Positions 9,213 to 37,208 of a stretch of DNA of 64,000 nt are shown piece after piece. Location of the stretch: the sequence record NZ_CP069678.1. One strand, 5' to 3'. Made by a program: the position numbers and the translations under genes. The stretch comes from a plasmid. How positions within the stretch are numbered: position 1 is the first letter of the stretch; every line of letters starts with the position of its first letter. Below the pieces are notes generated by a model that worked only from the letters and a program-made list of their open reading frames with translations, ran no database searches and had not been told where the DNA came from.

Positions 9213-9521
9213 TTACACATCATTCCATGGTGGCAGCCGGTTAACTTTCCTGCGCCACCAGTGGAAAGAGGCCATGAGCAGTCCGAACAAAAAACCACTC
9301 GTGATACTTATAATAATGGCCTCACCTGCTACCATTCCTGACGGCCCCCAGTACATAAACCACATTGCACATCCCCAGGAAATACCCCATAAGCCCCCCA
9401 TCAGCAGCGTAACCTGCCAGAACGGCATAAAGGGCAATGGCGGAAGCCGGATACCCAGCCGCCAGAGAATACGCAGCAGAGGAGGAGCATAATTACTCCG
9501 CCACATCTTTTTGCTGTCCAT
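9213..9521 (-). CDS. Hypothetical small membrane protein (102 aa)
   Basis: ORF with Trp-rich N-terminus and a clear hydrophobic TM segment (AIIISITSGFLFGLLMASF). No recognisable family. A rho-independent-like palindrome (gggcaattgccc plus T-run) lies just upstream on the + strand. Confidence 0.35.
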   Translation of the reverse strand: MDSKKMWRSNYAPPLLRILWRLGIRLPPLPFMPFWQVTLLMGGLWGISWGCAMWFMYWGPSGMVAGEAIIISITSGFLFGLLMASFHWWRRKVNRLPPWNDV

Positions 9522-9619: not shown

Positions 9620-9802
9620 TCATACCGTGATTATGTTGTCATGCACCTGTACACTGATAAAAGAAAGGGAGAACAGGAGGCTGGCTGAACAACCAATCCG
9701 TTCGTCCAGTTCAATGGCGGCTATCAGGTTCTGCTCCGCAATGTACTCACGAATGCGCTTCCTGTCCTGGCTGGCCAGCATGGTCCAGAATATCTCCATC
9801 AT
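9620..9802 (-). pseudogene. RelE/ParE-family toxin (yacB-like), C-terminally truncated
   Basis: N-terminal 36 aa (MMEIFWTMLASQDRKRIREYIAEQNLIAAIELDERI) match the ParE/RelE toxin fold. The rest diverges into non-homologous sequence, and the full ~95 aa is absent. Overlaps the upstream antitoxin stop. Confidence 0.6.
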
Positions 9803-9996
9803 TTACCGGCGACTTTCCTGCTCATTTCATCCCGCCATGCAGCAGCGGAAGATTCGACCATGTCATGGGGAAGCACATCGCCGCGCTCGAGTTGCTGACG
9901 TCCTGCCTCAACCTGGTCACGGAACCAGGTATTATGCTGCCGTTCCACGGTCTGGCGCATAAAATCCCGGATTAACTGAGAGCCATTACGGTCCAT
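9799..9996 (-). CDS. Putative antitoxin (yacA-like, partner of ParE-family toxin)
   Basis: 65-aa ORF immediately upstream of, and overlapping by 4 nt, the ParE-like ORF. Typical type II TA operon layout. Confidence 0.55.
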   Translation of the reverse strand: MDRNGSQLIRDFMRQTVERQHNTWFRDQVEAGRQQLERGDVLPHDMVESSAAAWRDEMSRKVAGK

Positions 9997-10077
9997 GCTT
10001 TTTGCAGGGCCATAAAAGCATCCTTCAGTTCAGCGTCAATTCTTAAACTCATATTAACCTGTGCCATTTATCACCCC

Positions 10078-10215
10078 GTCATTACCACGTATATACACAG
10101 TATATAACGATTCAGATATCGTCACTAGGATATGCCGCGCCAGCGGCATGGAAGGCGGCACTCCGCTGTTTCATATGATACCGCCGAAGCCCGATGTAAG
10201 CCGCTACAGTCGTCC
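10078..10215. repeat. Second copy of IncFII oriR-distal (repA4-like) segment; direct repeat of 46736-46880
   Basis: About 140 bp with roughly 88% identity to 46736-46880 (cattaccacgtatatacaca…ggcatggaaggcggcact…gtttcatatgatac…cgccgaagccc…gtaagccg), same orientation, with one 11-bp indel. Confidence 0.7.
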
Positions 10216-10359
10216 GAAAGTCACCAGCCTCCTCCCCCCTGCCGTCATCCGTGCATCAGCTATGCACTGAGTATGCCTGCCCTTCCCTAGAGAATCCTGC
10301 CAGGCTTGCCACACTGATATATCTTGACTTTATGTAAACGATATGACACTTTAACATGA

Positions 10360-10677: not shown

Positions 10678-11952
10678 TTGTTTCGCCAGGATGCTTTAGA
10701 AAACAGAAAAATGAAGTGGCAGGGACGGGCAATATTACTTCCCGGAATACCACTGTGGTTAATCATGCTGGGAAGCATTGTGTTTATTACGGCATTTCTG
10801 ATGTTCATTATTGTTGGTACCTATAGCCGCCGTGTTAATGTCAGTGGTGAGGTCACAACCTGGCCAAGAGCTGTCAATATATATTCAGGTGTACAGGGAT
10901 TTGTTGTCAGGCAGTTTGTTCATGAAGGGCAGTTGATAAAAAAAGGGGATCCTGTTTATCTGATTGACATCAGTAAAAGTACACGCAATGGTATTGTCAC
11001 TGATAATCATCGCCGGGATATAGAAAACCAGCTGGTTCGTGTGAACAACATTATTTCCCGTCTGGAAGAAAGTAAAAAAATAACGCTAGATACCCTGGAA
11101 AAACAACGTCTGCAATACACAGATGCGTTCCGTCGCTCATCAGACATTATACAGCGTGCAGAGGAAGGGATAAAAATAATGAAAAATAATATGGAGAATT
11201 ACAGATACTATCAGTCAAAAGGACTGATTAATAAAGATCAATTAACTAACCAAGTTGCATTATATTATCAACAACAAAACAACCTTCTCAGTCTGAGCGG
11301 ACAAAATGAACAAAATGCCCTGCAGATAACCACTCTGGAGAGTCAGATTCAGACTCAGGCAGCAGATTTTGATAATCGTATCTATCAGATGGAACTGCAA
11401 CGACTCGAATTGCAGAAAGAACTGGTTAACACTGATGTGGAAGGCGAAATCATTATCCGGGCGTTGTCTGACGGGAAAGTTGACTCCCTGAGTGTCACTG
11501 TAGGGCAAATGGTCAATACCGGAGACAGCCTTCTGCAGGTTATTCCTGAGAACATTGAAAACTATTATCTTATTCTCTGGGTCCCGAATGATGCTGTTCC
11601 TTATATTTCGGCTGGTGACAAAGTGAATATTCGTTATGAAGCCTTCCCCTCAGAAAAATTTGGGCAGTTCTCTGCTACGGTTAAAACTATATCCAGGACT
11701 CCTGCGTCAACACAGGAAATGTTGACCTATAAGGGCGCACCTCAAAATACGCCGGGTGCCTCTGTTCCCTGGTATAAAGTCATTGCGACGCCTGAAAAGC
11801 AGATAATCAGGTATGACGAAAAATACCTCCCTCTGGAAAATGGAATGAAAGCCGAAAGTACACTATTTCTGGAAAAAAGGCGTATTTACCAGTGGATGCT
11901 TTCTCCTTTCTATGACATGAAACACAGTGCAACAGGACCGATCAATGACTAA
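10678..11952 (+). CDS. cvaA: Colicin V secretion membrane fusion protein CvaA (HlyD family); published 413-aa product would start at 10711
   Basis: The ORF translation matches the CvaA sequence as recalled, with a single N-terminal TM and coiled-coil and lipoyl-like domains. It overlaps cvaB. Confidence 0.93.
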
Positions 11953-14041
11953 CAGGAATTTCAGACAAATTATAAATCTGCTTGATTTGCGCTGGCAACG
12001 TCGTGTTCCGGTTATTCATCAGACGGAGACCGCTGAATGTGGACTGGCCTGCCTAGCAATGATATGCGGTCATTTTGGTAAGAATATTGACCTGATATAT
12101 CTTCGCCGGAAGTTTAATCTCTCTGCCCGTGGAGCAACCCTTGCAGGAATCAATGGAATAGCGGAGCAACTGGGGATGGCCACCCGGGCTCTTTCACTGG
12201 AGTTGGATGAACTTCGAGTCCTCAAAACGCCGTGTATTCTCCACTGGGATTTCAGTCACTTCGTCGTTCTGGTCAGCGTAAAGCGTAACCGTTATGTACT
12301 GCATGATCCGGCCAGGGGCATAAGATATATCAGCCGGGAGGAAATGAGCCGATATTTTACAGGCGTTGCACTTGAGGTCTGGCCCGGAAGTGAATTCCAG
12401 TCGGAAACCCTGCAGACCCGCATAAGTCTTCGTTCACTGATTAACAGTATTTACGGTATTAAAAGAACGCTGGCGAAAATTTTCTGTCTGTCAGTTGTAA
12501 TTGAAGCAATCAATCTGCTAATGCCGGTGGGGACACAGCTGGTTATGGATCATGCTATTCCTGCGGGGGACAGAGGGCTACTGACGCTAATTTCTGCTGC
12601 TCTTATGTTTTTTATATTACTCAAAGCTGCAACGAGTACGCTGCGCGCATGGTCTTCACTGGTTATGAGCACGCTCATCAATGTACAGTGGCAGTCGGGG
12701 CTGTTCGATCATCTTCTCAGACTACCGCTGGCGTTTTTTGAACGCCGAAAATTAGGTGATATCCAGTCACGTTTTGACTCCCTTGACACATTGAGGGCCA
12801 CATTTACCACCAGTGTGATCGGGTTCATAATGGACAGCATTATGGTTGTCGGTGTTTGTGTGATGATGCTGTTATACGGAGGATATCTCACCTGGATAGT
12901 TCTCTGCTTTACCACAATTTACATTTTTATTCGACTGGTGACATACGGCAATTACCGACAGATATCAGAAGAATGTCTTGTCAGGGAGGCCCGTGCCGCC
13001 TCCTATTTTATGGAAACATTATATGGTATTGCCACGGTAAAAATCCAGGGGATGGTCGGAATTCGGGGAGCACACTGGCTTAATATGAAAATAGATGCGA
13101 TAAATTCGGGTATTAAGCTAACCAGGATGGATTTGCTCTTCGGAGGAATAAATACCTTTGTTACCGCCTGTGATCAGATTGTAATTTTATGGCTGGGAGC
13201 AGGCCTTGTGATCGATAATCAGATGACAATAGGAATGTTTGTAGCGTTTAGTTCTTTTCGTGGGCAGTTTTCGGAAAGAGTTGCCTCTCTGACCAGTTTT
13301 CTTCTTCAGCTAAGAATAATGAGTCTGCACAATGAGCGCATTGCAGATATTGCATTACATGAAAAGGAGGAAAAGAAACCTGAAATTGAAATCGTTGCTG
13401 ATATGGGGCCAATATCCCTGGAAACCAATGGTTTAAGCTATCGTTATGACAGTCAGTCAGCACCGATATTCAGTGCTCTGAGTTTATCTGTAGCTCCGGG
13501 GGAAAGTGTGGCTATAACTGGTGCTTCCGGTGCGGGAAAAACCACATTAATGAAAGTACTATGTGGACTATTTGAACCTGATAGCGGGAGGGTACTGATA
13601 AATGGTATAGATATACGCCAAATTGGAATAAATAATTATCACCGGATGATAGCCTGTGTTATGCAGGATGACCGGCTATTTTCAGGCTCAATTCGTGAAA
13701 ATATCTGTGGTTTTGCAGAGGAAATGGATGAAGAGTGGATGGTAGAATGTGCCAGAGCAAGTCATATTCATGATGTTATAATGAATATGCCAATGGGATA
13801 TGAAACATTAATAGGTGAACTTGGGGAAGGTCTTTCTGGCGGTCAAAAACAGCGTATATTTATTGCACGAGCCTTATACCGGAAACCAGGAATATTATTT
13901 ATGGATGAGGCAACCAGTGCTCTTGATTCAGAGAGTGAACATTTCGTGAATGTTGCCATAAAAAACATGAATATCACCAGGGTAATTATTGCACACAGAG
14001 AAACAACGTTGAGAACTGTTGATAGAGTTATTTCTATTTAA
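11945..14041 (+). CDS. cvaB: Colicin V ABC exporter CvaB with N-terminal C39 peptidase domain (698 aa)
   Basis: C39 peptidase Cys motif ([15 protein letters not shown]), a 6-TM domain, Walker A (GASGAGKTT), ABC signature (LSGGQKQR) and Walker B (ILFMDEATS). Confidence 0.93.
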
Positions 14042-14166
14042 ACCATAGAGGAATTACAAGCGTATGAGGAATATTTCTTCCTGTTATAATTCCTCGTTAT
14101 GCTCAGATATCTGTTGGAGGTGGAATGGAAGATAGACAATCCACCAAGAAGAAATATCATTCTGTG

Positions 14167-15495
14167 CTGATGAATCCCCTAATGATTTTTATCAAAATCA
14201 TTAAGTTAAGGTAGATACACATCTTGTCATATGATCAAATGGTTTCGCCAAAAATCAATAATCAGACAACAAAATGTGCGAACTCGATATTTTACACGAC
14301 TCTCTTTACCAATTCTGCCCCGAATTACACTTAAAACGACTCAACAGCTTAACGTTGGCTTGCCACGCCTTACTTGACTGTAAAACTCTCACTCTTACCG
14401 AACTTGGCCGTAACCTGCCAACCAAAGCGAGAACAAAACATAACATCAAACGAATCGACCGATTGTTAGGTAATCGTCACCTCCACAAAGAGCGACTCGC
14501 TGTATACCGTTGGCATGCTAGCTTTATCTGTTCGGGCAATACGATGCCCATTGTACTTGTTGACTGGTCTGATATCCGTGAGCAAAAACGGCTTATGGTA
14601 TTGCGAGCTTCAGTCGCACTACACGGTCGTTCTGTTACTCTTTATGAGAAAGCGTTCCCGCTTTCAGAGCAATGTTCAAAGAAAGCTCATGACCAATTTC
14701 TAGCCGACCTTGCGAGCATTCTACCGAGTAACACCACACCGCTCATTGTCAGTGATGCTGGCTTTAAAGTGCCATGGTATAAATCCGTTGAGAAGCTGGG
14801 TTGGTACTGGTTAAGTCGAGTAAGAGGAAAAGTACAATATGCAGACCTAGGAGCGGAAAACTGGAAACCTATCAGCAACTTACATGATATGTCATCTAGT
14901 CACTCAAAGACTTTAGGCTATAAGAGGCTGACTAAAAGCAATCCAATCTCATGCCAAATTCTATTGTATAAATCTCGCTCTAAAGGCCGAAAAAATCAGC
15001 GCTCGACACGGACTCATTGTCACCACCCGTCACCTAAAATCTACTCAGCGTCGGCAAAGGAGCCATGGATTCTAGCAACTAACTTACCTGTTGAAATTCG
15101 AACACCCAAACAACTTGTTAATATCTATTCGAAGCGAATGCAGATTGAAGAAACCTTCCGAGACTTGAAAAGTCCTGCCTACGGACTAGGCCTACGCCAT
15201 AGCCGAACGAGCAGCTCAGAGCGTTTTGATATCATGCTGCTAATCGCCCTGATGCTTCAACTAACATGTTGGCTTGCGGGCGTTCATGCTCAGAAACAAG
15301 GTTGGGACAAGCACTTCCAGGCTAACACAGTCAGAAATCGAAACGTACTCTCAACAGTTCGCTTAGGCATGGAAGTTTTGCGGCATTCTGGCTACACAAT
15401 AACAAGGGAAGACTCACTCGTGGCTGCAACCCTGCTTACTCAAAATCTATTCACACATGGTTACGTTTTGGGGAAATTATGAGGGGATCTCTCAG
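14167..15495 (+). mobile_element. IS10 (1329 bp) simple insertion with 9-bp target site duplication CATTCTGTG
   Basis: Outside end ctgatgaatcccctaatgatttt at 14167 and inside end …ggggatctctcag at 15495. CATTCTGTG is present at 14158-14166 and 15496-15504. Inserted between the cvaB stop and the cvaC stop. Confidence 0.9.
14274..15482 (+). CDS. IS10 transposase (402 aa; variant with …SLVAATLLTQ…YVLGKL C-terminus)
   Basis: Full-length match to the IS10 transposase (MCELDILHDSLYQF…). Confidence 0.92.
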   Translation: MCELDILHDSLYQFCPELHLKRLNSLTLACHALLDCKTLTLTELGRNLPTKARTKHNIKRIDRLLGNRHLHKERLAVYRWHASFICSGNTMPIVLVDWSDIREQKRLMVLRASVALHGRSVTLYEKAFPLSEQCSKKAHDQFLADLASILPSNTTPLIVSDAGFKVPWYKSVEKLGWYWLSRVRGKVQYADLGAENWKPISNLHDMSSSHSKTLGYKRLTKSNPISCQILLYKSRSKGRKNQRSTRTHCHHPSPKIYSASAKEPWILATNLPVEIRTPKQLVNIYSKRMQIEETFRDLKSPAYGLGLRHSRTSSSERFDIMLLIALMLQLTCWLAGVHAQKQGWDKHFQANTVRNRNVLSTVRLGMEVLRHSGYTITREDSLVAATLLTQNLFTHGYVLGKL

Positions 15496-15548
15496 CATTC
15501 TGTGTGGATTGTCCAATAACTGTTCTTTCTTATATTAAATAATACTAT

Positions 15549-15860
15549 TTATAAACAAACATCACTAAGATTATTTGGACTCCAATTACACAATCTTCCC
15601 GCAGCATAGTTCCATGCTTCTGAAGGTATCCCTTCGGGTTTTTGCTTAATTGTTCCCCCTAAACCGGATGGAGACATTGCAGGATTAGGTTTGTGAGTGG
15701 ATGCATAGTCATATATTGCACCTCCAGCCACACCCCCAGCAGCTGCTCCAATTCCTCCTGCAACAAATTGCCCGGATAGTGTTCCTATAGCCATCGCAAT
15801 ATCACGCCCTGAAGCACCACCAGAAACAGAATCTAATTCATTTAGAGTCAGAGTTCTCAT
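15549..15860 (-). CDS. cvaC: Colicin V (microcin V) precursor, 103 aa with double-glycine leader
   Basis: Matches CvaC as recalled: MRTLTLNELDSVSGG leader, Gly-rich core and …CNWSPNNLSDVCL C-terminus. Confidence 0.95.
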   Translation of the reverse strand: MRTLTLNELDSVSGGASGRDIAMAIGTLSGQFVAGGIGAAAGGVAGGAIYDYASTHKPNPAMSPSGLGGTIKQKPEGIPSEAWNYAAGRLCNWSPNNLSDVCL

Positions 15861-16074
15861 ATGATCTCCTTTTTATCTTATCGGATATTGAATAATAATT
15901 ATCACCAACAAAGTAACATATTGCAGACATTAATGCAGAGAAGCAAAATGTATGCATGGATAAAAAGTCCTTTCCTCTAAAAACACAATCATATATAGCT
16001 AATGCAATATATATTGCGGTGGCATTTATTATAAATGCAAATAACAACTCTAATTTTGTTCTTTTTCTATCCAT
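15838..16074 (-). CDS. cvi: Colicin V immunity protein Cvi (78 aa)
   Basis: Matches Cvi as recalled (MDRKRTKLELLFAFIINATAIYIALAIYD…). Upstream of and overlapping cvaC in the cvi-cvaC operon. Confidence 0.93.
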   Translation of the reverse strand: MDRKRTKLELLFAFIINATAIYIALAIYDCVFRGKDFLSMHTFCFSALMSAICYFVGDNYYSISDKIKRRSYENSDSK

Positions 16075-19109: not shown

Positions 19110-19972
19110 ATGAACGACATCTCTTCTGACGACATCTTCCTGCTGAAACAGCGCCTGGCCGAACAGGAAGCGCTGATCCACGCCCTGCAGGAAAAGCTGA
19201 GCAACCGGGAGCGCGAAATAGACCATCTGCAGGCGCAGCTGGATAAACTCCGCCGGATGAACTTCGGCAGTCGTTCCGAAAAAGTCTCCCGCCGTATCGC
19301 ACAAATGGAAGCCGATCTGAACCGGCTTCAGAAAGAGAGCGATACGCTGACTGGTAGGGTGTATGACCCGGCAGTACAGCGTCCGTTGCGTCAGACCCGC
19401 ACCCGTAAGCCGTTCCCTGAATCACTACCCCGTGACGAAAAGCGACTGTTGCCTGCGGCGCCGTGCTGCCCGAACTGCGGCGGTTCACTGAGCTATCTGG
19501 GCGAGGATACCGCCGAACAGCTGGAGTTGATGCGTAGCGCCTTCCGGGTTATCCGGACGGTACGGGAAAAACATGCCTGTACTCAGTGCGATGCCATCGT
19601 GCAGGCACCTGCACCTTCGCGGCCCATCGAGCGGGGTATCGCCGGACCGGGGCTGCTGGCCCGCGTGCTGACCTCGAAGTATGCAGAGCACACCCCGCTG
19701 TATCGCCAGTCAGAAATATACGGCCGGCAAGGTGTGGAGCTGAGCCGTTCACTGCTGTCGGGCTGGGTGGATGCATGCTGCCGGCTGCTGTCTCCGCTGG
19801 AAGAGGCGCTTCATGGCTATGTCATGACTGACGGCAAACTCCATGCCGATGATACCCCGGTCCAGGTACTGCTGCCGGGTAATAAGAAGACGAAGACCGG
19901 GCGGTTGTGGGCGTATGTTCGTGATGACCGCAATGCCGGGTCAGCGTTGGCACCTGCAGTGTGGTTCGCTTA
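19110..19972 (+). pseudogene. IS66-family transposase TnpC, N-terminal 287 aa only
   Basis: Leucine-zipper N-terminus and a CxxC zinc motif (CPNCGG…CTQC). Truncated by the Tn3-family IR. Confidence 0.8.
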
Positions 19973-20005
19973 GGGGTCTGACGCTCAGTGGAACGAAAAC
20001 TCACG

Positions 20006-23000
20006 TTAAGCAACGTTTTCTGCCTCTGACGCCTCTTTTAATGGTCTCAGATGTCCTTTGGTCACCAGTTCTGCCAGCGTGAAGGAATAATGGCCGAGCA
20101 TATTGATATGTCCGTGGCAAAGCGGGGAGAGGCGTGCGATATCTTCATCATTCAGTGTTTCACCCTGCGCCCGGAGATGATCCAGGGCTGCCTGCATATA
20201 AATAGTGTTCCATAACACGACGGCGTTAGTGACCAGCCCCAGTGTGCCCAGTTGATCTTCCTGACCGTCGGTATATCGTTTTCTTATCTCACCTTTTTGA
20301 CCGTGACAGATGGCTCTGGCAACGGCATGGCGACTTTCTCCCCGATTAAGCTGGGTCAGAATGCGCCGGCGGTAATCTTCATCATCAATATAATTAAGCA
20401 GATACAGCGTTTTGTTGATGCGCCCCACTTCAATGATTGCCTGAGTCAGTCCGGAAGGACGTTCACTTTTCAGCAATGAACGGACCAGCACTGAAACCTG
20501 TACTTTGCCCAGCTTCAGGGAGCCAGCGGTCCGGATCATTTCGTCCCACTGAAGGACTATTTTTCGGGGATCTGATTGCCCTCTGGCAATATCATTCAGC
20601 ACGCCATAGTCGGCATCATGGTCCATTCGCCAGAAAACCGAAGCACCGGCATCAGCCAGGCGTGGAGAAAACTGGTATCCCAGCAGCCAGAAAAGGCCAA
20701 AGACAAGTTCGCTGGCACCTGCTGTATCGGTCATAATTTCGGTTGGATTCAGCCCGGTCTCCTGTTCCAGAAGACCTTCCAGCACAAAGATAGAGTCCCT
20801 CAGCGTCCCCGGTATAACGATGCCATGAAAGCCGGAATACTGATCGGACACAAAGTTGTACCAGGTGATCCCTCTGTTATTACCAAAGTATTTGCGGTTC
20901 GGTCCGGCATTGATTGTTCTGACTGGCGTAACAAAGCGCATTCCATCTGCAGATGCCACTTCTCCTCCACCCCATATCTGTGCCAGTGGCAGCGTTGCCT
21001 GAAAATCAACCAGTCTGGCATTAGCGCTGGTGATAGTTTCAGCCCGCAGATAGTTCGCTTTTGTCCAGTTCAGCCGGTGTCGGGTCAGTGCAGGAACATT
21101 TGATCTGATCAGTGGTTCCAGACCGATATTGCAGGCTTCAGCCATCAGCACGGCGCTGATGCTGACGGGCAGATCATCAACTCTGGCACTGGCTTCACTA
21201 GCATGGAAAAACTCATCAGCAAATCCGGTATGGGCGTTAATTTCGAGCAGCAACTCCGTTAAATCCACCGGAGGGAGTAGATCACTGATCATTTTGCTCA
21301 GTCGTTTCAGACTGTCCGGCTCATCAAGACTGGCGAGGGGAGAAATTGTCAACCGGGGCTTCGGGCCAGAAACATCGAGTTCGACAGCCTCATTTTCGCA
21401 AAGACGTGCAGCAACCTGTCTGTAACGACTATCAAGCTGATGACCCAGAGATTTTATTGCTTCCTGCGGGTCTGTCGGGTGCCCCAAAGAACGATAAACC
21501 TTAATCCGGTTTGCCTGCCAGTCAGCACCCTGTAGTAATCTTGCACGAGGATCTCCCCACCGGTTACTGCCGGTAACGTAGACATCCCTCCGCCTCAGAC
21601 TATCCTGCAGTTTACTGAGAAAGCAGAGCGTGTATCCCCTGCGGGTGATATGTTTTTCCTTGTTAATCACCAGCCGTTTCCATGACCGACTGATAATTTC
21701 CGTTGGTGCGTCGTCAAAAAACTGCCGCCGTGAGCTGAACTCCCGGCTGAGGTAGTCACAGGCATTCAGAGTGGTAACCCCGGCAGGTGCGGATGAAAAT
21801 TTAACGGTATTCAGCAGATGGGGCAGGAAACGACGAACGCGCCCGTACTGCTCCACCATTTCTTCATGAAAATTATCGTCTGAGGGCCGGGCAATTTCAC
21901 GGACAAGCGTGATGATTTCAGCCAGCTTTTGCCTTGGGATGTAGCTGAACACCTCAGCACGAATCGATTCGTCCGGTGTTTCTTCTTTCAGCAGGTACGA
22001 ACATGCGCTGGCGAGCGCCAATGCAGATTTATCCAGATCCTTCAGCGAGCGGAGCCGTTTTTTCTGCCCAATCTTTCTGGCGTCACGGATGATAACGGCC
22101 AGCATGGCGTCCAGAACGTCCAATGCATCATCCAGCGCCAGCGTTTCCCATGCAAGGACAAAGGCAACCAGAACCGCCATCCTTTTCTGCGGTGACATCC
22201 TGGCAATATTGAACACCGAAGTCATACCAGCATAACGTGCGAGATTTTTCAGGCGCACAGCCGGGAGTGTACTCAGGTTTTCAGCATGCAGGCCAAAATC
22301 GTTCAGAGTTTTCCAGCGTTCAATTGCTTCATTAAACGCCGGACCACTGATGGTCACAGGGCCCTTTTTCAGTGATTCCAGTAAAGACAGGCGGCTGCAA
22401 TCAGTTGGCCCCAGCAGCATCTCCAGCTGTGAACGCTGTTCGGCTGACGGTATCAGTGCCAGTTTGTTCCACAGGCGCAACGTCGCCTTTTCCCTTACCT
22501 CTGAAATCAACCGGGTCAGCGTAGTGGCTCCGGGGAGAATAATACGATGTTGCATAAGCCACCCTGTCGCCAGATCGAAAAGCAGGCCAGGACGTTCGTT
22601 GCTTATCCAGCTCCGGGTATATAAAAGACGGGTAAGGCGAAATGTCCAGGGCCAGGCAAATTCACGATACTGATAGTGCTGACGTATCAGCGCTGCATGC
22701 TCACGGCGGGTATTTTCCCTCTGACCGTATTCTGCAAGAACGGTGATATCACGAATCCCGAGCTGTCTGGCGGTAAAATGCCGGACGCCGGAAGGAATAT
22801 GATTCATATCGGTGAGGAAGGTGCCCAGAAAACGGACACATCCAATTTGCAGGGCAATGCCCAGACGGTTGTGATCACCTCTGCTTTTTCCGATAAATTC
22901 CTTGTCTGCTTCATCAAGGTGAAAATATCGTGCCAGCTGAAGCTCATCCGGTTCACCGGTGAATCTGCCATAGCTTTCAGTCTGCTCAGTGGTCAGAAAG

Positions 23001-23011
23001 TCAACGGGCAT
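20006..23011 (-). CDS. tnpA: Tn3 transposase TnpA (1001 aa)
   Basis: MPVDFLTTEQ… full-length Tn3-family TnpA. The ORF-track start lies further upstream. Confidence 0.93.
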   Translation of the reverse strand: MPVDFLTTEQTESYGRFTGEPDELQLARYFHLDEADKEFIGKSRGDHNRLGIALQIGCVRFLGTFLTDMNHIPSGVRHFTARQLGIRDITVLAEYGQRENTRREHAALIRQHYQYREFAWPWTFRLTRLLYTRSWISNERPGLLFDLATGWLMQHRIILPGATTLTRLISEVREKATLRLWNKLALIPSAEQRSQLEMLLGPTDCSRLSLLESLKKGPVTISGPAFNEAIERWKTLNDFGLHAENLSTLPAVRLKNLARYAGMTSVFNIARMSPQKRMAVLVAFVLAWETLALDDALDVLDAMLAVIIRDARKIGQKKRLRSLKDLDKSALALASACSYLLKEETPDESIRAEVFSYIPRQKLAEIITLVREIARPSDDNFHEEMVEQYGRVRRFLPHLLNTVKFSSAPAGVTTLNACDYLSREFSSRRQFFDDAPTEIISRSWKRLVINKEKHITRRGYTLCFLSKLQDSLRRRDVYVTGSNRWGDPRARLLQGADWQANRIKVYRSLGHPTDPQEAIKSLGHQLDSRYRQVAARLCENEAVELDVSGPKPRLTISPLASLDEPDSLKRLSKMISDLLPPVDLTELLLEINAHTGFADEFFHASEASARVDDLPVSISAVLMAEACNIGLEPLIRSNVPALTRHRLNWTKANYLRAETITSANARLVDFQATLPLAQIWGGGEVASADGMRFVTPVRTINAGPNRKYFGNNRGITWYNFVSDQYSGFHGIVIPGTLRDSIFVLEGLLEQETGLNPTEIMTDTAGASELVFGLFWLLGYQFSPRLADAGASVFWRMDHDADYGVLNDIARGQSDPRKIVLQWDEMIRTAGSLKLGKVQVSVLVRSLLKSERPSGLTQAIIEVGRINKTLYLLNYIDDEDYRRRILTQLNRGESRHAVARAICHGQKGEIRKRYTDGQEDQLGTLGLVTNAVVLWNTIYMQAALDHLRAQGETLNDEDIARLSPLCHGHINMLGHYSFTLAELVTKGHLRPLKEASEAENVA

Positions 23012-23732
<721 letters not shown>

Positions 23733-23844
23733 TACGCCTATTTTTATAGGTTAATGTCATGATAATAATGGTTTCTTAGACGTCAGGTGGCACTTTTCGG
23801 GGAAATGTGCGCGGAACCCCTATTTGTTTATTTTTCTAAATACA

Positions 23845-23873
23845 TTCAAATATGTATCCGCTCATGAGACAAT
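23845..23873 (+). promoter_or_regulatory. blaTEM P3-type promoter (-35 TTCAAA, 17 bp, -10 GACAAT)
   Basis: Hexamers seen at 23845-23850 and 23868-23873 upstream of bla. Confidence 0.5.
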
Positions 23874-23902
23874 AACCCTGGTAAATGCTTCAATAATATT
23901 GA

Positions 23903-24775
<873 letters not shown>

Positions 24776-24875
24776 CTGTCAGACCAAGTTTACTCATATA
24801 TACTTTAGATTGATTTAAAACTTCATTTTTAATTTAAAAGGATCTAGGTGAAGATCCTTTTTGATAATCTCATGA

Positions 24876-25433
<558 letters not shown>

Positions 25434-25450
25434 GGACAAGGAGGTGTGCG

Positions 25451-25813
25451 ATGAGCGCCTACACGGTATCGCAACTGGCCCATAACGCTGGGGTGAGCGT
25501 ACATATCGTGCGCGACTACCTGGTGCGCGGCTTGTTACGGCCGGTGGCCTGCACCACGGGCGGCTACGGCGTGTTCGACGATGCGGCCTTGCAACGGCTG
25601 TGCTTCGTGCGCGCGGCCTTCGAGGCGGGTATCGGCCTGGATGCCCTGGCGCGGCTGTGCCGTGCGCTCGACGCAGCGGACGGCGCACAAGCCGCAGCGC
25701 AGCTTGCCGTGCTGCGCCAGTTGGTCGAGCGGCGGCGCGCGGCGTTGGCCCATCTGGACGCGCAACTGGCCTCCATGCCAGCCGAGCGGGCGCACGAGGA
25801 GGCATTGCCGTGA
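25451..25813 (+). CDS. merD: Mer operon co-regulator MerD (121 aa)
   Basis: [29 protein letters not shown]… MerR-like HTH. Position after merA. Confidence 0.85.
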
Positions 25814-26046
25814 ACGCCCCTGACAAACTGCCGCCCGAGACGCGCCAACCCGTTTCCGGCTACCTGTGGGGTGCGCTGGCCGTGTTGACCTGCCCCTGCC
25901 ATCTGCCGATTCTCGCCGCCGTGCTGGCCGGGACGACCGCCGGTGCCTTCCTTGGCGAGCATTGGGGTGTTGCCGCGCTCGCGCTGACCGGCTTGTTCGT
26001 TCTGGCCGTAACGCGGCTGCTGCGCGCCTTCCGGGGCGGATCATGA
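25810..26046 (+). CDS. merE: MerE (78 aa, GTG start)
   Basis: [36 protein letters not shown]… with the conserved CPC motif. Confidence 0.75.
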
Positions 26047-26750
26047 CGAGTTCGCAGCCCGCCGGATGGACGGCGGCCGAGTTGGCGCAGGCGGCGGCGC
26101 GCGGACAGCTTGACCTGCATTACCAGCCGCTGGTCGATCTGCGCGATCACCGGATCGCTGGCGCGGAAGCGTTGATGCGCTGGCGGCATCCGAGGCTTGG
26201 CCTGTTGCCGCCCGGCCAGTTCCTGCCGCTGGCCGAGTCGTTCGGCCTGATGCCGGAAATAGGCGCGTGGGTGCTGGGCGAGGCCTGTCGCCAGATGCAC
26301 AAGTGGCAAGGACCGGCATGGCAACCGTTCCGTCTTGCCATCAATGTGTCCGCCAGCCAGGTTGGGCCAACGTTCGACGACGAGGTAAAGCGGGTGCTGG
26401 CCGATATGGCCCTGCCCGCCGAGCTTCTGGAGATCGAACTGACCGAATCGGTCGCATTCGGCAATCCAGCCCTGTTCGCCAGTTTCGACGCCTTGCGCGC
26501 CATCGGCGTGCGCTTCGCCGCCGACGACTTCGGCACCGGCTATTCCTGCCTGCAACATCTGAAATGCTGCCCCATCACCACATTGAAAATCGACCAATCC
26601 TTTGTCGCCAGGCTCCCGGATGATGCCCGTGACCAAACTATCGTGCGGGCGGTGATCCAGCTCGCGCACGGGCTGGGCATGGATGTCATTTTCAGAAGAC
26701 GACTGCACCAGTTGATTGGGCGTAATGGCTGTTGTGCAGCCAGCTCCTGA
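26043..26750 (+). CDS. urf2: urf2 (EAL-domain protein of Tn21 family), C-terminus altered by integron IRt
   Basis: EAL-domain motifs (…EALMRW…, …DDFGTGYS…). The reading frame runs into the 25-bp IRt. Confidence 0.75.
   Translation: MTSSQPAGWTAAELAQAAARGQLDLHYQPLVDLRDHRIAGAEALMRWRHPRLGLLPPGQFLPLAESFGLMPEIGAWVLGEACRQMHKWQGPAWQPFRLAINVSASQVGPTFDDEVKRVLADMALPAELLEIELTESVAFGNPALFASFDALRAIGVRFAADDFGTGYSCLQHLKCCPITTLKIDQSFVARLPDDARDQTIVRAVIQLAHGLGMDVIFRRRLHQLIGRNGCCAASS
26684..26708. repeat. Class 1 integron / Tn402 inverted repeat IRt
   Basis: TGTCATTTTCAGAAGACGACTGCAC. Confidence 0.7.
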
Positions 26751-26788
26751 CAGTTCAATATCAGAAGTGATCTGCACCAATCTCGACT

Positions 26789-28076
26789 ATGCTCAATACT
26801 CGTGTGCACCAAAGCGAGGTGAGCATGGCGGCGGACACCCCACGGATTCCAGAACAAGGCGTGGCCACTCTGCCTGATGAGGCTTGGGAGCGTGCGCGCC
26901 GTCGTGCGGAGATCATCAGTCCGTTGGCGCAGTCGGAGACGGTCGGGCACGAAGCGGCCGATATGGCGGCTCAGGCGCTGGGCTTGTCTCGGCGCCAGGT
27001 ATACGTTCTGATCCGGCGTGCCCGGCAAGGCAGCGGCCTCGTGACGGATCTGGTGCCCGGCCAGTCCGGTGGAGGTAAAGGTAAGGGGCGCTTGCCGGAA
27101 CCGGTCGAGCGCGTCATCCACGAGCTACTGCAAAAGCGGTTCCTGACCAAGCAGAAGCGCAGCCTAGCGGCCTTTCACCGCGAAGTCACTCAGGTGTGCA
27201 AGGCTCAAAAACTGCGAGTGCCGGCGCGCAATACCGTGGCCTTACGGATCGCTAGCCTTGACCCGCGCAAGGTCATCCGCCGGCGGGAAGGCCAGGATGC
27301 CGCTCGTGACCTACAAGGTGTGGGCGGCGAGCCTCCTGCCGTGACCGCGCCGCTGGAGCAGGTGCAGATAGACCATACGGTCATCGACCTGATCGTGGTC
27401 GATGACCGCGACCGGCAACCTATTGGCCGCCCGTACCTGACCCTCGCCATCGACGTGTTCACCCGCTGCGTGCTCGGCATGGTCGTCACGCTGGAAGCGC
27501 CGTCTGCCGTTTCGGTTGGCCTGTGCCTCGTGCATGTCGCCTGCGACAAGCGCCCTTGGCTGGAAGGACTGAACGTGGAAATGGATTGGCAGATGAGCGG
27601 CAAGCCCTTGCTGCTCTACCTAGACAACGCGGCCGAGTTCAAGAGCGAGGCCCTGCGCCGGGGTTGCGAGCAGCATGGCATCCGGCTGGACTATCGCCCG
27701 CTGGGACAGCCGCACTATGGCGGCATCGTGGAACGGATCATCGGCACGGCGATGCAGATGATTCACGACGAACTGCCGGGAACGACCTTCTCCAACCCTG
27801 ACCAGCGCGGCGACTACGATTCCGAAAACAAGGCCGCCCTGACGCTGCGCGAGCTAGAGCGCTGGCTCACATTGGCGGTCGGCACCTACCACGGTTCGGT
27901 GCACAACGGCCTGCTCCAACCGCCGGCCGCGCGCTGGGCCGAGGCCGTGGCGCGTGTCGGCGTACCGGCCGTCGTCACACGCGCTACTTCGTTCCTGGTC
28001 GATTTTCTGCCGATCCTCCGGCGCACGCTGACCCGCACCGGCTTTGTCATCGACCACATCCACTACTACGCCGATG
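26789..28076 (+). pseudogene. tniA: Tn402-type transposase TniA, truncated at codon ~429 by IS26
   Basis: MLNTRVHQSEVSMAADTPRIPEQ… DDE transposase. The frame ends …ADGHCCK*, created by the IS26 IR. Confidence 0.85.
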
Positions 28077-28896
28077 GGCACTGTTGCAAATAGTCGGTGG
28101 TGATAAACTTATCATCCCCTTTTGCTGATGGAGCTGCACATGAACCCATTCAAAGGCCGGCATTTTCAGCGTGACATCATTCTGTGGGCCGTACGCTGGT
28201 ACTGCAAATACGGCATCAGTTACCGTGAGCTGCAGGAGATGCTGGCTGAACGCGGAGTGAATGTCGATCACTCCACGATTTACCGCTGGGTTCAGCGTTA
28301 TGCGCCTGAAATGGAAAAACGGCTGCGCTGGTACTGGCGTAACCCTTCCGATCTTTGCCCGTGGCACATGGATGAAACCTACGTGAAGGTCAATGGCCGC
28401 TGGGCGTATCTGTACCGGGCCGTCGACAGCCGGGGCCGCACTGTCGATTTTTATCTCTCCTCCCGTCGTAACAGCAAAGCTGCATACCGGTTTCTGGGTA
28501 AAATCCTCAACAACGTGAAGAAGTGGCAGATCCCGCGATTCATCAACACGGATAAAGCGCCCGCCTATGGTCGCGCGCTTGCTCTGCTCAAACGCGAAGG
28601 CCGGTGCCCGTCTGACGTTGAACACCGACAGATTAAGTACCGGAACAACGTGATTGAATGCGATCATGGCAAACTGAAACGGATAATCGGCGCCACGCTG
28701 GGATTTAAATCCATGAAGACGGCTTACGCCACCATCAAAGGTATTGAGGTGATGCGTGCACTACGCAAAGGCCAGGCCTCAGCATTTTATTATGGTGATC
28801 CCCTGGGCGAAATGCGCCTGGTAAGCAGAGTTTTTGAAATGTAAGGCCTTTGAATAAGACAAAAGGCTGCCTCATCGCTAACTTTGCAACAGTGCC
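28077..28896 (+). mobile_element. IS26 copy 1 (820 bp, 14-bp IRs GGCACTGTTGCAAA); flanks CGCCGATG / CATTTATG, no TSD
   Basis: Exact IS26 ends and Tnp26 gene. Confidence 0.95.
28140..28844 (+). CDS. tnp26: IS26 transposase Tnp26 (234 aa)
   Basis: [57 protein letters not shown]…. Confidence 0.95.
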   Translation: MNPFKGRHFQRDIILWAVRWYCKYGISYRELQEMLAERGVNVDHSTIYRWVQRYAPEMEKRLRWYWRNPSDLCPWHMDETYVKVNGRWAYLYRAVDSRGRTVDFYLSSRRNSKAAYRFLGKILNNVKKWQIPRFINTDKAPAYGRALALLKREGRCPSDVEHRQIKYRNNVIECDHGKLKRIIGATLGFKSMKTAYATIKGIEVMRALRKGQASAFYYGDPLGEMRLVSRVFEM

Positions 28897-29057
28897 CATT
28901 TATGAATGTTCCTGTTATGGCTTATGTTCAAGAAAGCATTGCCCCTGAAATGATGGGCAAGGTGTTTTCCCTTTTGATGACCGCCATGACTCTTTCTATG
29001 CCGATAGGCTTACTTGTTGCAGGTCCGGTTGTTGAGGTTATAGGTGTTAATACATGA
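28897..29057 (+). pseudogene. MFS efflux pump 3' fragment (mef(B)-like, sul3-associated), 5' end removed by IS26
   Basis: In-frame C-terminal …MNVPVMAYVQESIAPEMMGKVFSLLMTAMTLSMPIGLLVAGPVVEVIGVNT* starting directly at the IS26 end. Low GC. Confidence 0.5.
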
Positions 29058-29301
29058 TTTTTCTGGTCTGGTGTTGCGTTGATAGTAAACGCTGTTCTCT
29101 GCCGCATTCTGACACGACGCTATGACAAAGTAACAATGAAACCGCAAGTGGACTGAAAAAAGGACCGGGTTGATGATAATTTGTAGTGGTGAGCTTCTGG
29201 GAGTACAAAACAAAGTGCTCAAAATTGTCGGGCTCATGGCGTTTAACGGTATTAATTTCGCTTATAATAATCTTTCTATAATAGCCTAAAGGAGAATATC
29301 T

Positions 29302-30165
29302 ATGATACCTAATAGCGAAAATAAAAGAGTATGGTTTATTACCGGAGCAAGCAAGGGGCTTGGCTATGCTTTTACATGCGCCGCCTTGAAAGCCGGGGAT
29401 AAAGTTGTTGCAGTTGCAAGGACTATCGATAATTTGGCGAAGCTAGAAGAAACATATCAAGAGAGCTTACTGCCATTAAACCTCGATGTTACAGATAGGG
29501 AGGCTGTTTTTTCTACGGTTGAAACAGCAGTTAAACATTTCGGTAGGCTTGATATTGTTGTTAATAATGCGGGTATCATGACTATGGGTATGATTGAAGA
29601 ACTAAACGAATCCGATGCTCGGAAACTAATGGACACAAACTTTTTTGGAGCTCTTTGGGTTTGTCAGGCAGTGATGCCCTATTTGAGGTCGCAGCGTTCT
29701 GGACATATCATACAGATTACAAGCATTGGCGCTATTATCTCGGGTCCGATGTCTGGTATTTACAGTGCAAGTAAATTTGCGCTGGAAGGAATGAGTGAAG
29801 CCTTAGCAAAAGAAGCGGAACATTTCGGAGTGAAACTCACTATGGTGGAACCAGGAGGATATTGGACAGATTTATACACTTCGATGAGTTACAGCAATCC
29901 ATTAGATTCATACGGTACACTGCGCGATGAGCTGGCGAAACAGTATTCCGAAGATTCGGTCGATAGTGATCCTTCCTTGGCAGCGGAAGCCCTTATGAAA
30001 TTAGTAGCCAGCAATAATCCGCCTTTGAGGCTTATCCTTGGCAGCATGGTATACGATTTGGCGATGGATACCTTAAAAGCACGGATGGCTACCTGGGAAG
30101 AATGGGAAGCTGTTAGCCGTGCATCAGAAAAGGCTATTCCTGCACCGGAGAGATATGGAGTATAA
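29302..30165 (+). CDS. Short-chain dehydrogenase/reductase (SDR) family protein (sul3-module orf)
   Basis: TGASKGLG Rossmann motif, NNAG, and the YxxxK catalytic pair (YSASK). Low-GC codon usage. Confidence 0.75.
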   Translation: MIPNSENKRVWFITGASKGLGYAFTCAALKAGDKVVAVARTIDNLAKLEETYQESLLPLNLDVTDREAVFSTVETAVKHFGRLDIVVNNAGIMTMGMIEELNESDARKLMDTNFFGALWVCQAVMPYLRSQRSGHIIQITSIGAIISGPMSGIYSASKFALEGMSEALAKEAEHFGVKLTMVEPGGYWTDLYTSMSYSNPLDSYGTLRDELAKQYSEDSVDSDPSLAAEALMKLVASNNPPLRLILGSMVYDLAMDTLKARMATWEEWEAVSRASEKAIPAPERYGV

Positions 30166-30202
30166 TACCAAACATGGTTTTTGAGGCAAGGACGAAACTA
30201 TC

Positions 30203-30448
30203 ATGAAAATTGAAATTATGGAATATAACCCGGATTGGACAAAGAATTTTGAAGAAGAGAAAATAAAATTGCTCCATTTTTTCGGTTCTCATGCCGTAGC
30301 CATTGAACATATCGGAAGCACGGCGATACCCAATCAACGGGCGAAACCGGTTATAGATATATTTATTGGCGTTTCGCCTTTTGCTGAACTACCTTTTATC
30401 AGCGCATTTTTAATGCAAAGGAGTATCACCACACTCCGACAGATATGA
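30203..30448 (+). pseudogene. GrpB-family protein, N-terminal fragment
   Basis: 81 aa (…YNPDWTKNFEEEKIKLLHFFGSHAVAIEHIGSTAIP…) with a GrpB-like start. Full-length proteins are ~180 aa. Confidence 0.45.
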
Positions 30449-30916
30449 CAGGCAGATATTTGTTTGCAAAATATACAAATGAAGTTTGGACCCATAATCT
30501 TCTTGCTTTGGTGTAGGTATAATACCCAAAAACGAAGTTTATGCGGAACAGGATAACACCTCGAAATCGGAGTTTATATGGCTTCGTGGGGGAGTTATGT
30601 GTTTGAGCTTTGTCGCATTAACGCGAATCAGGGGTTGACGGCAGAAATAGACTGGAATTACACTTCTTGGAGTCGGCGTTGCCGGAAAATTCTGATTGGA
30701 TTAGTTGTTCGGGGTGCGAAAACAGTCGTAGTTCGGGGAAAAAACCGAATTTTGACCCAAAACCGCGAAAAACTCGAAATGACAGTTCCTATCAGTTTTC
30801 ATAATGAATTAAAACAAAAAAATTAGGCTGCAAAGATAGGGAAAATGTGTCAATTTGCGTAAGTGATAATTAGTCAATTAAGATAAATGCTACTTTTGTA
30901 ATCAAAGCAAAATGAT

Positions 30917-31708
30917 ATGAGCAAGATTTTTGGAATCGTAAATATAACCACCGATAGTTTTTCCGATGGAGGACTTTATTTAGATACAGATAAGGCAATT
31001 GAGCATGCTCTGCATTTGGTTGAAGATGGAGCAGATGTGATTGATTTGGGAGCCGCTTCCAGTAATCCTGATACAACTGAAGTGGGCGTTGTGGAAGAAA
31101 TCAAAAGACTCAAACCTGTCATTAAGGCTTTAAAAGAAAAAGGCATTTCTATTTCTGTTGATACATTTAAACCTGAGGTTCAGAGTTTTTGCATAGAACA
31201 AAAGGTTGATTTTATTAATGATATTCAAGGTTTTCCTTATCCTGAGATTTATTCAGGCTTGGCAAAGTCAGATTGCAAACTTGTGTTGATGCACTCCGTT
31301 CAGCGAATTGGTGCAGCTACTAAAGTTGAAACGAATCCGGAAGAGGTTTTTACTTCCATGATGGAATTTTTTAAAGAAAGAATTGCTGCTTTAGTTGAGG
31401 CTGGTGTAAAGCGTGAACGAATTATTCTTGATCCGGGTATGGGCTTCTTTTTAGGCTCTAATCCAGAAACATCTATTCTTGTTTTGAAGCGTTTCCCTGA
31501 AATTCAAGAAGCTTTTAATTTGCAAGTAATGATTGCAGTGTCACGGAAATCATTCTTAGGTAAAATAACTGGAACCGATGTGAAATCTCGTTTAGCACCA
31601 ACTCTTGCAGCAGAAATGTATGCATACAAAAAAGGTGCAGATTATCTCCGCACCCATGATGTTAAGTCTTTATCAGATGCCTTGAAAATATCCAAAGCCC
31701 TAGGTTAG
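30917..31708 (+). CDS. sul3: Sulfonamide-resistant dihydropteroate synthase Sul3 (263 aa)
   Basis: MSKIFGIVNITTDSFSDGG… DHPS fold. Matches Sul3 as recalled. Low-GC gene linked to qacH and an IS440 fragment. Confidence 0.88.
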   Translation: MSKIFGIVNITTDSFSDGGLYLDTDKAIEHALHLVEDGADVIDLGAASSNPDTTEVGVVEEIKRLKPVIKALKEKGISISVDTFKPEVQSFCIEQKVDFINDIQGFPYPEIYSGLAKSDCKLVLMHSVQRIGAATKVETNPEEVFTSMMEFFKERIAALVEAGVKRERIILDPGMGFFLGSNPETSILVLKRFPEIQEAFNLQVMIAVSRKSFLGKITGTDVKSRLAPTLAAEMYAYKKGADYLRTHDVKSLSDALKISKALG

Positions 31709-31710
31709 TT

Positions 31711-31986
31711 TTATTTTTTTAGCTTTCTAAATGAATATGCTATACTTGCTCTGAAGTTGTGTTGGCGTACTTGACTTAGGTCTGGATCTTTCGAACTGTT
31801 ACTAAGAGGGTAATCATAGCCAAACATAAACTGGAAATGTCCTAATTCTAAACCTGTTCCAATACCTACACTATAATCAAGAGGACTTAAACTTCCATCA
31901 CTTCCAAAAGGTTTTGTGTACTTCTCTTGAGTTTTCGTAGCTAAATAGTAGTGTTTGTTGGTAAATCCAAATAATCCAATATTCAA
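31711..31986 (-). pseudogene. Possible outer-membrane beta-barrel protein C-terminal fragment
   Basis: 91-aa ORF with alternating hydrophobic pattern, ending in …SIAYSFRKLKK. No N-terminus. Weak support. Confidence 0.25.
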
Positions 31987-32641
31987 TCTTGCGACCGGGA
32001 AAGTCCTCTTGAAAGTACCACAAGTTCGCGGGATGGAGTTTTATCCCAGCTGCATCGAGAAAGGCATGCGCAGTGAGCGTGCTCTCAAGCTCGCCATCGC
32101 CGAAATGTATGTCAAAGGAGTAAGTACCCGCAGGGTCTCGGATATCGTCGAAATTCTTTGTGGCACCGAAGTCAGCTCGTCCCAGGTCAGCAGGCTGGCA
32201 AAGGAGCTCGATGAAGAGATTACGTCTTGGAAGGCGCAGCCTGTCGGACAGATTCAATACTTGGTACTTGATGCGACCTATGAATCGGTTCGCGTCGGTT
32301 CCCATGTGGTCAAGCAGGCGCTTCTAGTGGCTATTGGCGTTGATTACAGCGGGAATCGGCATATTCTTGACGCCGAAGTCGCGAACAGTGAGGCAGAGGT
32401 AAACTGGCGTTCCTTTCTCGAGGGTCTCGTACGACGAGGGATGCACGGCCTGCGAATGATCACCAGTGATGACCACTCAGGACTGCGCGCGGCAATCGAT
32501 GCTGTCTTCCCTGGAATTCTGTGGCAACGCTGCCAGTTTCATCTGCAGCAGAATGCCCACTCCTACGTCACGAAAAAAGATGAGATCCCGCTGATAGCCG
32601 CTGATATTCGGAAGGTGTTCAATCGGAATATGTCAAGATAG
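31955..32641 (+). pseudogene. IS256-family (IS440-like) transposase, internal fragment lacking both ends
   Basis: Mutator-type transposase core (…YLVLDATYESVRVG…LVAIGVDYSGNRHIL…ITSDDHSGLRAAIDAVFPGILWQRCQFHL…). No start codon and no terminal IRs. Confidence 0.7.
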
Positions 32642-32799
32642 TTTATGCCAGATTTTTGAGAGGTTTGCATCAAGCAGCCTTCGAAAGAGGACGGCATGAC
32701 ATTGAGACCGGCAAGGCGTCGTAGATACGCACTTTCCCAGTACGCCACCGTAAGGGGTTTTTCTCTTTGGCAGCAAGAATGGTTTGGTTTCTTTTTTCC

Positions 32800-32885: not shown

Positions 32886-32887
32886 GA

Positions 32888-33226: not shown

Positions 33227-33309
33227 TCTCCTCTACGGTATGAAGGATAAATAGTGGTGGCTATGAGTTGCCAAAAACAGTCTTGCGGCTGTCGATTTTC
33301 TGTGAGCAT

Positions 33310-37205: not shown

Positions 37206-37208
37206 CAC

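Follow-up and report, generated by a model that had tools for sequence, protein, structure and literature searches.

Analysis of a 64,000-nt stretch of plasmid DNA (NZ_CP069678.1; hereafter the window) revealed two related sequences of about 140 bp, copy A at 10078-10215 (+) and copy B at 46737-46880 (+), which lie as direct repeats 36,659 bp apart. Most probably, both are copies of the non-coding post-origin segment of IncFII/IncI1-type backbones, and the pair is the scar of an old homologous exchange or fusion between F-type backbones that became fixed in the ColV lineage. In such backbones, the segment separates the ter/repA4 block beyond the origin from the post-origin operon, whose first gene it adjoins. 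Copy B still occupies that site in the resident replicon, copy A is the origin-proximal end of a second FII post-origin module that has decayed and lost its yacC, and the repeat pair did not arise in this plasmid.

A BLAST comparison of the window with itself gave a significant same-strand alignment of 104 bp between 10078-10181 and 46737-46839 (91.3% identity, E 1e-33). The aligned part is directly followed by an 11-bp block (ACAGGAGTAAA) that is present in copy B only, and beyond this indel a further 28-35 bp or so can be aligned at about 86-89% identity up to 10215/46880. MAFFT alignment of the two whole intervals gave a mean column identity of 90%, the longest exact runs being 23, 22, 14, 13, 13, and 12 bp. 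The likeness ends sharply, the left flanks diverging from 10077/46736 and the right flanks from about 10216/46881. Copy A represents a relic with a cva-linked allele of the segment, characterized by the 11-bp deletion and a diverged right end. These results bore out the sequence-only reading, which had proposed a repeat of about 140 bp in the same orientation at 10078-10215 and 46736-46880, with coordinates right to within one base. Gene positions also agreed with its view that the copies flank the cva genes, the resistance island, and pemIK: bracketed between them are cvaAB, IS10, cvaC-cvi, the multiresistance region (blaTEM, sul3, aadA1, intI1, and tet(A)), and pemK-pemI-tir. That the similarity is a chance or low-complexity match without common ancestry is hardly credible; nothing beyond the shortness of the region speaks for it, and it is contradicted by the E value of the self-comparison and by the conservation of the segment at 90-100% identity, with collinear flanks, in thousands of plasmids.

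Copy B lies in its native position between repA4 and tir of the resident RepFII replicon. Read along the minus strand, the order is copB, CopA, tap, repA1, oriR, ter/repA4, the segment, tir, pemI, pemK, an IS10 end remnant, and IS26. The basic replicon (47280..49527, -) consists of oriR, repA1, tap, CopA RNA, and copB/repA2, and its DNA is 99.7-99.9% identical to records annotated as incFII RepA, Tap, and replication regulatory RepA; the first and the last of these annotations correspond to repA1 (47639-48496, -; ORF 47639-48511) and copB/repA2 (49270-49527, -), respectively. CopA RNA (Rfam RF00042) was detected at 49056-49144 (+), its score of 93.6 bits (E 1.4e-17) exceeding the gathering score of 60. 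Matching with consensus patterns located a perfect DnaA box (TTATCCACA; 47455-47463, -) in oriR and an inverted pair of Tus ter cores at 47083-47096 (-) and 47219-47232 (+) in the repA4 region (46915..47279, -). The coordinates of this region were transferred from the repA4 pseudogene annotated by PGAP in AHB3 plasmid 2 (L013), and in homologous loci the segment is immediately followed by a repA4 pseudogene according to PGAP. With CopA, RepA1 with its tap leader and copB/repA2, and an oriR carrying a DnaA box followed by inverted ter sites, the replicon is of the IncFII (R1/R100) type. The CopA score, the DnaA box, the two ter cores, and the PGAP repA4 pseudogene together confirmed that copy B is situated just beyond repA4/oriR of a real RepFII replicon, as had been suggested from the letters alone.

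Downstream of copy B, the R100-type post-origin operon is made up of the tir/CPBP membrane protease gene (46047-46700, -), pemI (45697-45954, -), and pemK (45363-45695, -). Gene order and landmarks are the same as in the R1/R100 IncFII replicon with repA4-tir-pemIK, with no material difference, and the 3.3-kb arrangement at copy B (junction B) was found in more than 2,400 plasmids at 95% identity or above. Copy B is therefore best described as an ordinary member of its kind in its native place in a working R100-type RepFII replicon, and tir-segment-repA4, being the common R100 arrangement, need not be a recombinant junction. Only the approximately 140 bp between repA4 and tir of the R100-type region is common with copy A. 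A 430-bp block at 46737-47167, covering the segment and the repA4/ter region, is shared at about 92.5% identity with IncI1-type plasmids, and the alignment stops short of their initiator genes. This pattern suggests that the block may have been exchanged or conserved as a unit, possibly for priming or termination signals.

On the other side, copy A forms the end of a decayed second post-origin module of about 1.3 kb, which comprises a DUF6404 gene (9213..9521, -; the distal member of the FII-type post-origin module), a truncated yacB' toxin pseudogene (9674..9799, -), a frameshifted yacA' antitoxin pseudogene (9799..10067, -), and the segment. A DAHP synthase gene lies beyond DUF6404 on the same side. 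On the minus strand, copy A stops about 10 nt before the start codon of yacA', whose ORF is split by a 1-bp deletion and frameshift at about 10007 relative to intact alleles; PGAP annotates yacA as frameshifted at the homologous position in L013, in pVTB379v-1 (L014), and in a further record (L016). The C-terminal part of yacB' is missing, the homology to intact yacB ending at 9674, and PGAP labels the gene in homologous records as 'incomplete, missing C-terminus'; the deletion that removed yacC begins at this position. With the frames of both yacA and yacB broken, the locus at copy A does not encode a functional YacAB (RelE/ParE-type) toxin-antitoxin pair. Identity to natural FII alleles is uniformly 95-97% across yacB', yacA', and the left 100 bp of copy A, and the relic is therefore one evolutionary unit.

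Fused to the right end of copy A is an interior fragment of a second, more diverged yacC gene (3'-5' exonuclease; 10236..10316, -), which is 78-88% identical to the yacC genes of IncF and IncI plasmids and has the same orientation as yacA'B'. It is followed by the AT-rich cvaA promoter and then by cvaA, which starts at 10678 on the opposite strand. The origin-side DNA of copy A is thus replaced, from about 10180-10235, by the yacC fragment and the cva operon, and the fragment implies a second, older yac module together with a deletion that joined that module to the segment. The idea that a diverged repA4 follows copy A on the right was rejected, since the DNA there is a fragment from inside yacC.

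Comparison with natural loci placed the relic in its context. In the IncFII plasmids pINF237_02 and pH1519-76, repA, repA4, the segment, yacA, yacB, yacC, an intervening gene, and DUF6404 follow one another without interruption, and in IncI1-type plasmids the order is repA, segment, yacA, yacB, yacC. Copy A, yacA', and yacB' are collinear with, and 92-97% identical to, the yacABC modules of both IncFII (pH1519-76 and pINF237_02) and IncI1-type (p9134dT) plasmids, including the segment upstream of yacA. Compared with these intact modules, the copy A locus has a frameshifted yacA, a truncated yacB, and a deleted yacC, and the yacC fragment and cva stand where repA4/oriR should be. The decayed yacA'/yacB' pair that follows copy A accounts for the yacA/yacB-like remnant which had been noticed beside the repeat, and the contiguous repA-repA4-segment-yacABC order of natural FII loci agrees with the statement that yacAB is the usual neighbour of repA4 in IncFII backbones. 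The segment itself is not FII-specific; it goes with yacA and is equally found in IncI1-type plasmids.

The association with yacA raises the alternative that neither a second replicon nor a cointegrate was ever involved: the segment would be the promoter/leader of yacAB(C), copy A would have come in as part of a yac block associated with colicin genes, perhaps from a plasmid of the IncI1/ColIa type, and its similarity to copy B would mean no more than that the tir-pemIK backbones kept the same promoter region. Consistent with this idea, every intact locus, those of IncI1-type plasmids included, has the segment immediately upstream of yacA, and the right neighbour of copy A is derived from yacC, not from replicon DNA. 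Moreover, yacABC stands beside the colicin Ia genes in pS88 and NZ_CP134087.1 (L010), and yacAB has been proposed to co-transfer with colicin regions (PMC4707298). However, the distal side of the relic points to a different source, because DUF6404 and 9500-9688 match FII-type backbones only (95-96% identity over 9500-9688), with no match in IncI1-type loci. In addition, copy A reaches about 130 bp in the direction of the origin, far beyond the palindrome next to yacA, and is collinear with the repA4-proximal DNA of copy B as far as 10215, and the other neighbour of the segment is repA4 plus the origin in every intact locus examined. On balance, we consider this alternative unlikely, although not negligible, and prefer the origin of copy A in an FII-type post-origin module.

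The proposal that a second FII replicon once sat at copy A thus stood in part. Remains of an FII-type module are present there, but the right side consists of the yacC fragment and the cvaA promoter; no trace of a second replicon is left at copy A, the right neighbour being neither repA4 nor oriR. That a replicon once adjoined copy A is what the module remains lead us to infer. Cointegrate ancestry fared similarly: the pair fits a scar of an old fusion or exchange between F-type backbones, but the junction is lineage-wide, and the founding event may have been cointegration or another kind of exchange.

At least 274 ColV plasmids, among them pAPEC-1 and the PCN033 plasmid, share junction A (yacB'-yacA'-segment-cvaA) at 100% identity, and it is therefore an old scar of the lineage, not an event of this plasmid. 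At least three other records have both junctions, with spacings, as computed from the match coordinates, of about 32.8 kb (NZ_CP075063.1), 25.9 kb (NZ_LS992172.1), and 45.4 kb (NZ_CP019268.1), compared with 36.7 kb here. The repeat pair accordingly looks like a lineage feature whose spacing changes with the content of the resistance island. The allele data contradict an origin of copy A by fresh duplication of copy B in the present plasmid.

All four combinations of flanks, that is, yacA or tir on the left with repA4 or cva on the right, were found in nature. The reciprocal-type junction tir-segment-cvaA occurs in 24 mostly poultry plasmids, including NZ_CP104511.1 (L009), L010, and CP059926.1 (L011), in which the order is parM-stbB-pemK-pemI-tir-segment-cvaA-like-mchF/cvaB-ColV-family bacteriocin-cvi. 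Their segment is of the tir type up to about 10109 and of the cva type, including the 11-bp deletion, from 10139 or earlier, which places the switch at about 10110-10139. The cva operon of ColV plasmids and the cva-like operon of the L009 type are 96.2% identical, and the cva-linked allele of the right half of the segment is older than the split between the two operons. L009-L011, mostly poultry IncFIA/FII plasmids with the cva-like operon beside tir-pemIK-stbB-parM, share the exact segment/yacC-fragment/cvaA-promoter junction with ColV plasmids; their operon is made up of an HlyD-family gene, mchF, the gene of a ColV-family bacteriocin, and cvi, and a gene for colicin M immunity comes after it. 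L010 and L012 were rejected as a second case of two full segments, the copy upstream of yacA being cut after 45 bp by a sul2 insertion.

Both recombinant junctions predicted for the repeat pair were built in silico. The exact product of copy A and copy B was absent from 72,556 plasmids (PLSDB) and from 20,395 E. coli replicons, the best full-length matches to the predicted junction reaching 98.3% and 97.3%, respectively. The deletion-type junction, in which the relic flank and the segment are followed by repA4/oriR/repA1, was recovered from one PLSDB record, pEND_Eco 14033-1 (L003), and from about eight of the 20,395 E. coli replicons, including L014 and L013; these are cva-less. A simple crossover between the two copies of the window was rejected as the source of L003, because both copies read C at 10076 and 10086 and L003 reads T; its alleles instead indicate a recombinant of the relic with a resident copy of the pS88 type.

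The parental arrangement of these forms was readily found. The replicon allele of L003, L013, and L014 occurs at 99.3-99.5% identity in about 100 E. coli replicons, in most of them at two places, including the ColV-Ia plasmids pS88 (pECOS88; L015) and pMS1665-1. Both of these contain the module twice, as direct repeats at a distance of 12-14.5 kb. One of the copies, adjoining cva, is the relic, which has the same relic-segment-cva junction as the window, next to iroN, the DAHP synthase gene, and DUF6404; the other, with a second segment, belongs to the resident RepFII replicon and has the order colicin Ia-yacC-yacB-yacA-segment-repA4-repA. The RepA, Tap, and FinO protein accessions of pS88 and pMS1665-1 are those of L003 and L014, as is that of CopB in pS88. 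In pS88, the relic yacA (7672-7941) is intact and has the same protein accession as the resident yacA (19731-20000), most ColV relics being frameshifted, which suggests gene conversion between the two yacA copies.

Tables of variable sites located the crossovers. In L003 and L014, the alleles are those of the relic as far as the yacA' frameshift at 10007 and those of the resident copy from 10076 on, so that the crossover falls somewhere in 10008-10075, where 68 bp are identical; in L013, the relic alleles extend to 10140 and the resident ones begin at 10164, and its crossover interval, 10141-10163, coincides with the longest exact run of 23 bp. Between L013 and L003, identity is 100% in yacB', yacA', the right part of the segment, repA4, and oriR. 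When a crossover was simulated in pMS1665-1, the product differed from the L003/L014 junction by a single mismatch and no gap over 5,068 bp, and L013 was best reproduced by a crossover in the 23-bp block. Because the two-copy parent is abundant and the one-copy forms are rare and have two different switch points, the simplest account of these data is that homologous recombination between relic and resident module deleted the colicin block at least twice, independently, in ColV-Ia sister plasmids; at most one of the two cva-less types, L003 or L013, could instead be ancestral. The earlier expectation that recombination between the copies deletes the intervening block was hence realized in sister ColV-Ia plasmids of the pS88/pMS1665-1 lineage, whereas the exact product for the tir-type context of the present plasmid was not among the records searched.

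The breakpoints cluster within about 170 bp: the yacA/tir flank switch at 10068-10077, those of L003 (10008-10075), L009 (10110-10139), and L013 (10141-10163), and the repA4/cva switch from about 10164-10180. This clustering, together with the structure of the native copy, would be expected if the segment were a dedicated recombination site or a part of a small mobile element, with the breakpoints produced by site-specific recombination or transposition. On both strands, copy B is more stably folded than its shuffled versions (z -3.5 and -3.05), and a hairpin with a 7-bp stem, ATGCCGC-NNNN-GCGGCAT, has an invariant stem and a variable loop across nine alleles. However, the breakpoints lie at different positions, each in a run of perfect identity, as homologous recombination predicts, and the clustering is subject to ascertainment bias, only this region having been examined. 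In a search for two 11-bp XerC/XerD consensus arms 6-8 bp apart, the best Xer (dif/cer/psi) matches in the segments reached 13-14 of 22 positions; elsewhere, 18 sites scored at least 15, and the maximum in the window was 16. Nor is either copy bounded by the terminal inverted repeats of an insertion sequence, MITE, or transposon; the neighbours are yacA', cvaA, tir, and repA4, with no adjoining transposase or recombinase gene, and in other plasmids collinear backbone DNA flanks the segment. Among Rfam hits at E up to 1, the only one in the segment was a snoRNA match of 20.6 bits (E 0.61) at 46685-46752, which lies below its gathering score of 70 and was taken as chance; the remaining three hits fell in the CopA/repA leader region at 49018-49144. 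A dedicated site is thus very improbable, and homologous exchange in the shared post-origin segment remains our preferred reading of the breakpoints.

Copy A does not fold above shuffled sequence (z +0.25 and -0.67) and has thus lost the above-random folding that copy B retains. The minus strand of copy B contains a terminator-like hairpin with a T-run at 46865-46851, and the T-run is gone from copy A through the 11-bp deletion. A near-palindrome, CGTATATAC-ACA-GTATATAACG, adjoins yacA, and a promoter scan of both copies found no sigma-70 consensus promoter. From its position and the yacA-side palindrome, it is plausible that the segment combines a promoter/operator with a terminator. Its interpretation as a small gene, based on a 20-codon minus-strand ORF read by eye, was rejected, as the differences between the copies would all be non-synonymous and there is no Shine-Dalgarno sequence. 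A more far-reaching view, which we regard as rather unlikely, holds that the segment is a conserved functional joint (promoter/operator, terminator, and possibly priming hairpins) and a preferred point of module swapping in IncF/IncI backbones, and that it provides the main route by which colicin operons are gained and lost in ColV-like plasmids. If this were true, post-origin cargo such as yacABC, tir-pemIK, and colicin blocks would be repeatedly exchanged between plasmids at the segment.

The DNA bracketed by the copies includes the colicin V operon (10678..16074), in which cvaA (10678-11952, +) and cvaB (ending at 14041, +) are convergent with cvaC (15549-15860, -) and cvi (15838-16074, -). 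Within 10343-10375, in the upstream region of cvaA, a candidate Fur-box-like sequence (GATAATGATTACCATTCTC) was read by eye, and it fits an iron-regulated export of colicin V. A complete IS10 of 1,329 bp (14167-15495; 402-aa transposase ORF 14274-15482) sits between cvaB and cvaC, probably leaving both coding regions intact, and is absent from pAPEC-1, pS88, and L009. Its right end and an IS10 remnant cut by IS26 beside pemK make up a 148-bp direct repeat (15348-15495 and 45069-45216, 96% identity), a second pair that brackets the resistance island. This repeat was initially considered as another backbone relic, which was rejected upon its identification as an IS10 end.

The multiresistance region (19971..45216) contains a Tn2/Tn3-like element with blaTEM, sul3, aadA1, intI1, a Tn3-family tnpA, tet(A), two IS26 copies, and the IS10 end remnant. 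Perfect 40-bp inverted repeats at 19971-20010 and 24885-24924 surround a Tn3-family transposase gene and blaTEM, and the resulting Tn2/Tn3-like unit of about 4.95 kb interrupts an IS66-family transposase ORF ending at 19973. The IS26 copies lie in inverted orientation at 28076-28897 and 44248-45069, and a 341-bp direct repeat of 99.7% identity (100% over 300 bp) occupies 38420-38760 and 43908-44248, 5.5 kb apart.

As direct repeats, copies A and B would be a substrate for RecA-dependent deletion or resolution. The deletion product would keep iro...yacA'-segment-repA4-oriR-repA1-tra and hence a complete replicon, and the deleted circle would take cva, cvi, blaTEM, sul3, aadA1, intI1, tet(A), and pemIK, with no known replicon on it. 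In this respect the pair resembles the short diverged direct repeats through which mosaic and cointegrate F plasmids undergo RecA-type resolution or deletion, where accessory DNA is likewise bracketed by direct repeats. In pS88, the resident flank is an intact yacABC-cia and relic and resident have 506 bp in common at 97.4% identity; here, because the resident flank is tir-pemIK, only the segment of about 140 bp is shared. The bacterial minimal efficient processing segment (MEPS) is at most about 30 identical bp, and recombination drops exponentially with divergence (PMC8918686). The longest exact runs in the present pair, 22-23 bp within 104 bp at 91% identity, are at or below that length and are therefore marginal substrates, which puts the pair at the lower limit for efficient RecA processing (PMC8918686). 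By comparison, the crossovers of the natural derivatives fell inside perfect-identity blocks of 68 and 23 bp, and the one in L013 used the same 23-bp block, there with about 500 bp of adjoining 97% homology. The Chi site GCTGGTGG is absent from both strands of the 64-kb window, in which about two would be expected by chance.

Deletion of the 36.6 kb between copies A and B in this plasmid should thus be possible, and rare. The pem system has an established role in post-segregational killing, and loss of pemIK from the retained plasmid would release PemK; since the deletion removes this addiction module, deletants are probably counter-selected. The two IS26 copies and the 341-bp direct repeat inside the island are better substrates for rearrangement and should dominate it, IS26-mediated events being far likelier.

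The components of this arrangement were all known already: the R100-type replicon region and yacABC are annotated, and the decayed yacAB beside cva appear as PGAP pseudogenes. The occurrence of yacAB near colicin regions (PMC4707298) and the repA1-yacABC-cia order of pS88 have also been published. In the searchable (non-subscription) papers on ColV and F plasmids, neither the duplication of the segment nor a loss of cva through recombination between the two yac modules was described. The pair is a real but ordinary backbone scar common to hundreds of plasmids, and its practical consequence for this plasmid is small. With the limits given above, the sequence-only reading proved right for the most part. 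Our analysis accounts for the decayed yacAB genes beside cvaA as the remains of a second F-type post-origin module, and the 140-bp repeat is what this module still has in common with the resident replicon. Moreover, the mapped crossovers provide a concrete mechanism by which some 'ColV-like' virulence plasmids lost cva (and cia) and kept iro, iss, and other virulence genes, and this loss bears on typing schemes that use cvaABC/cvi as markers.
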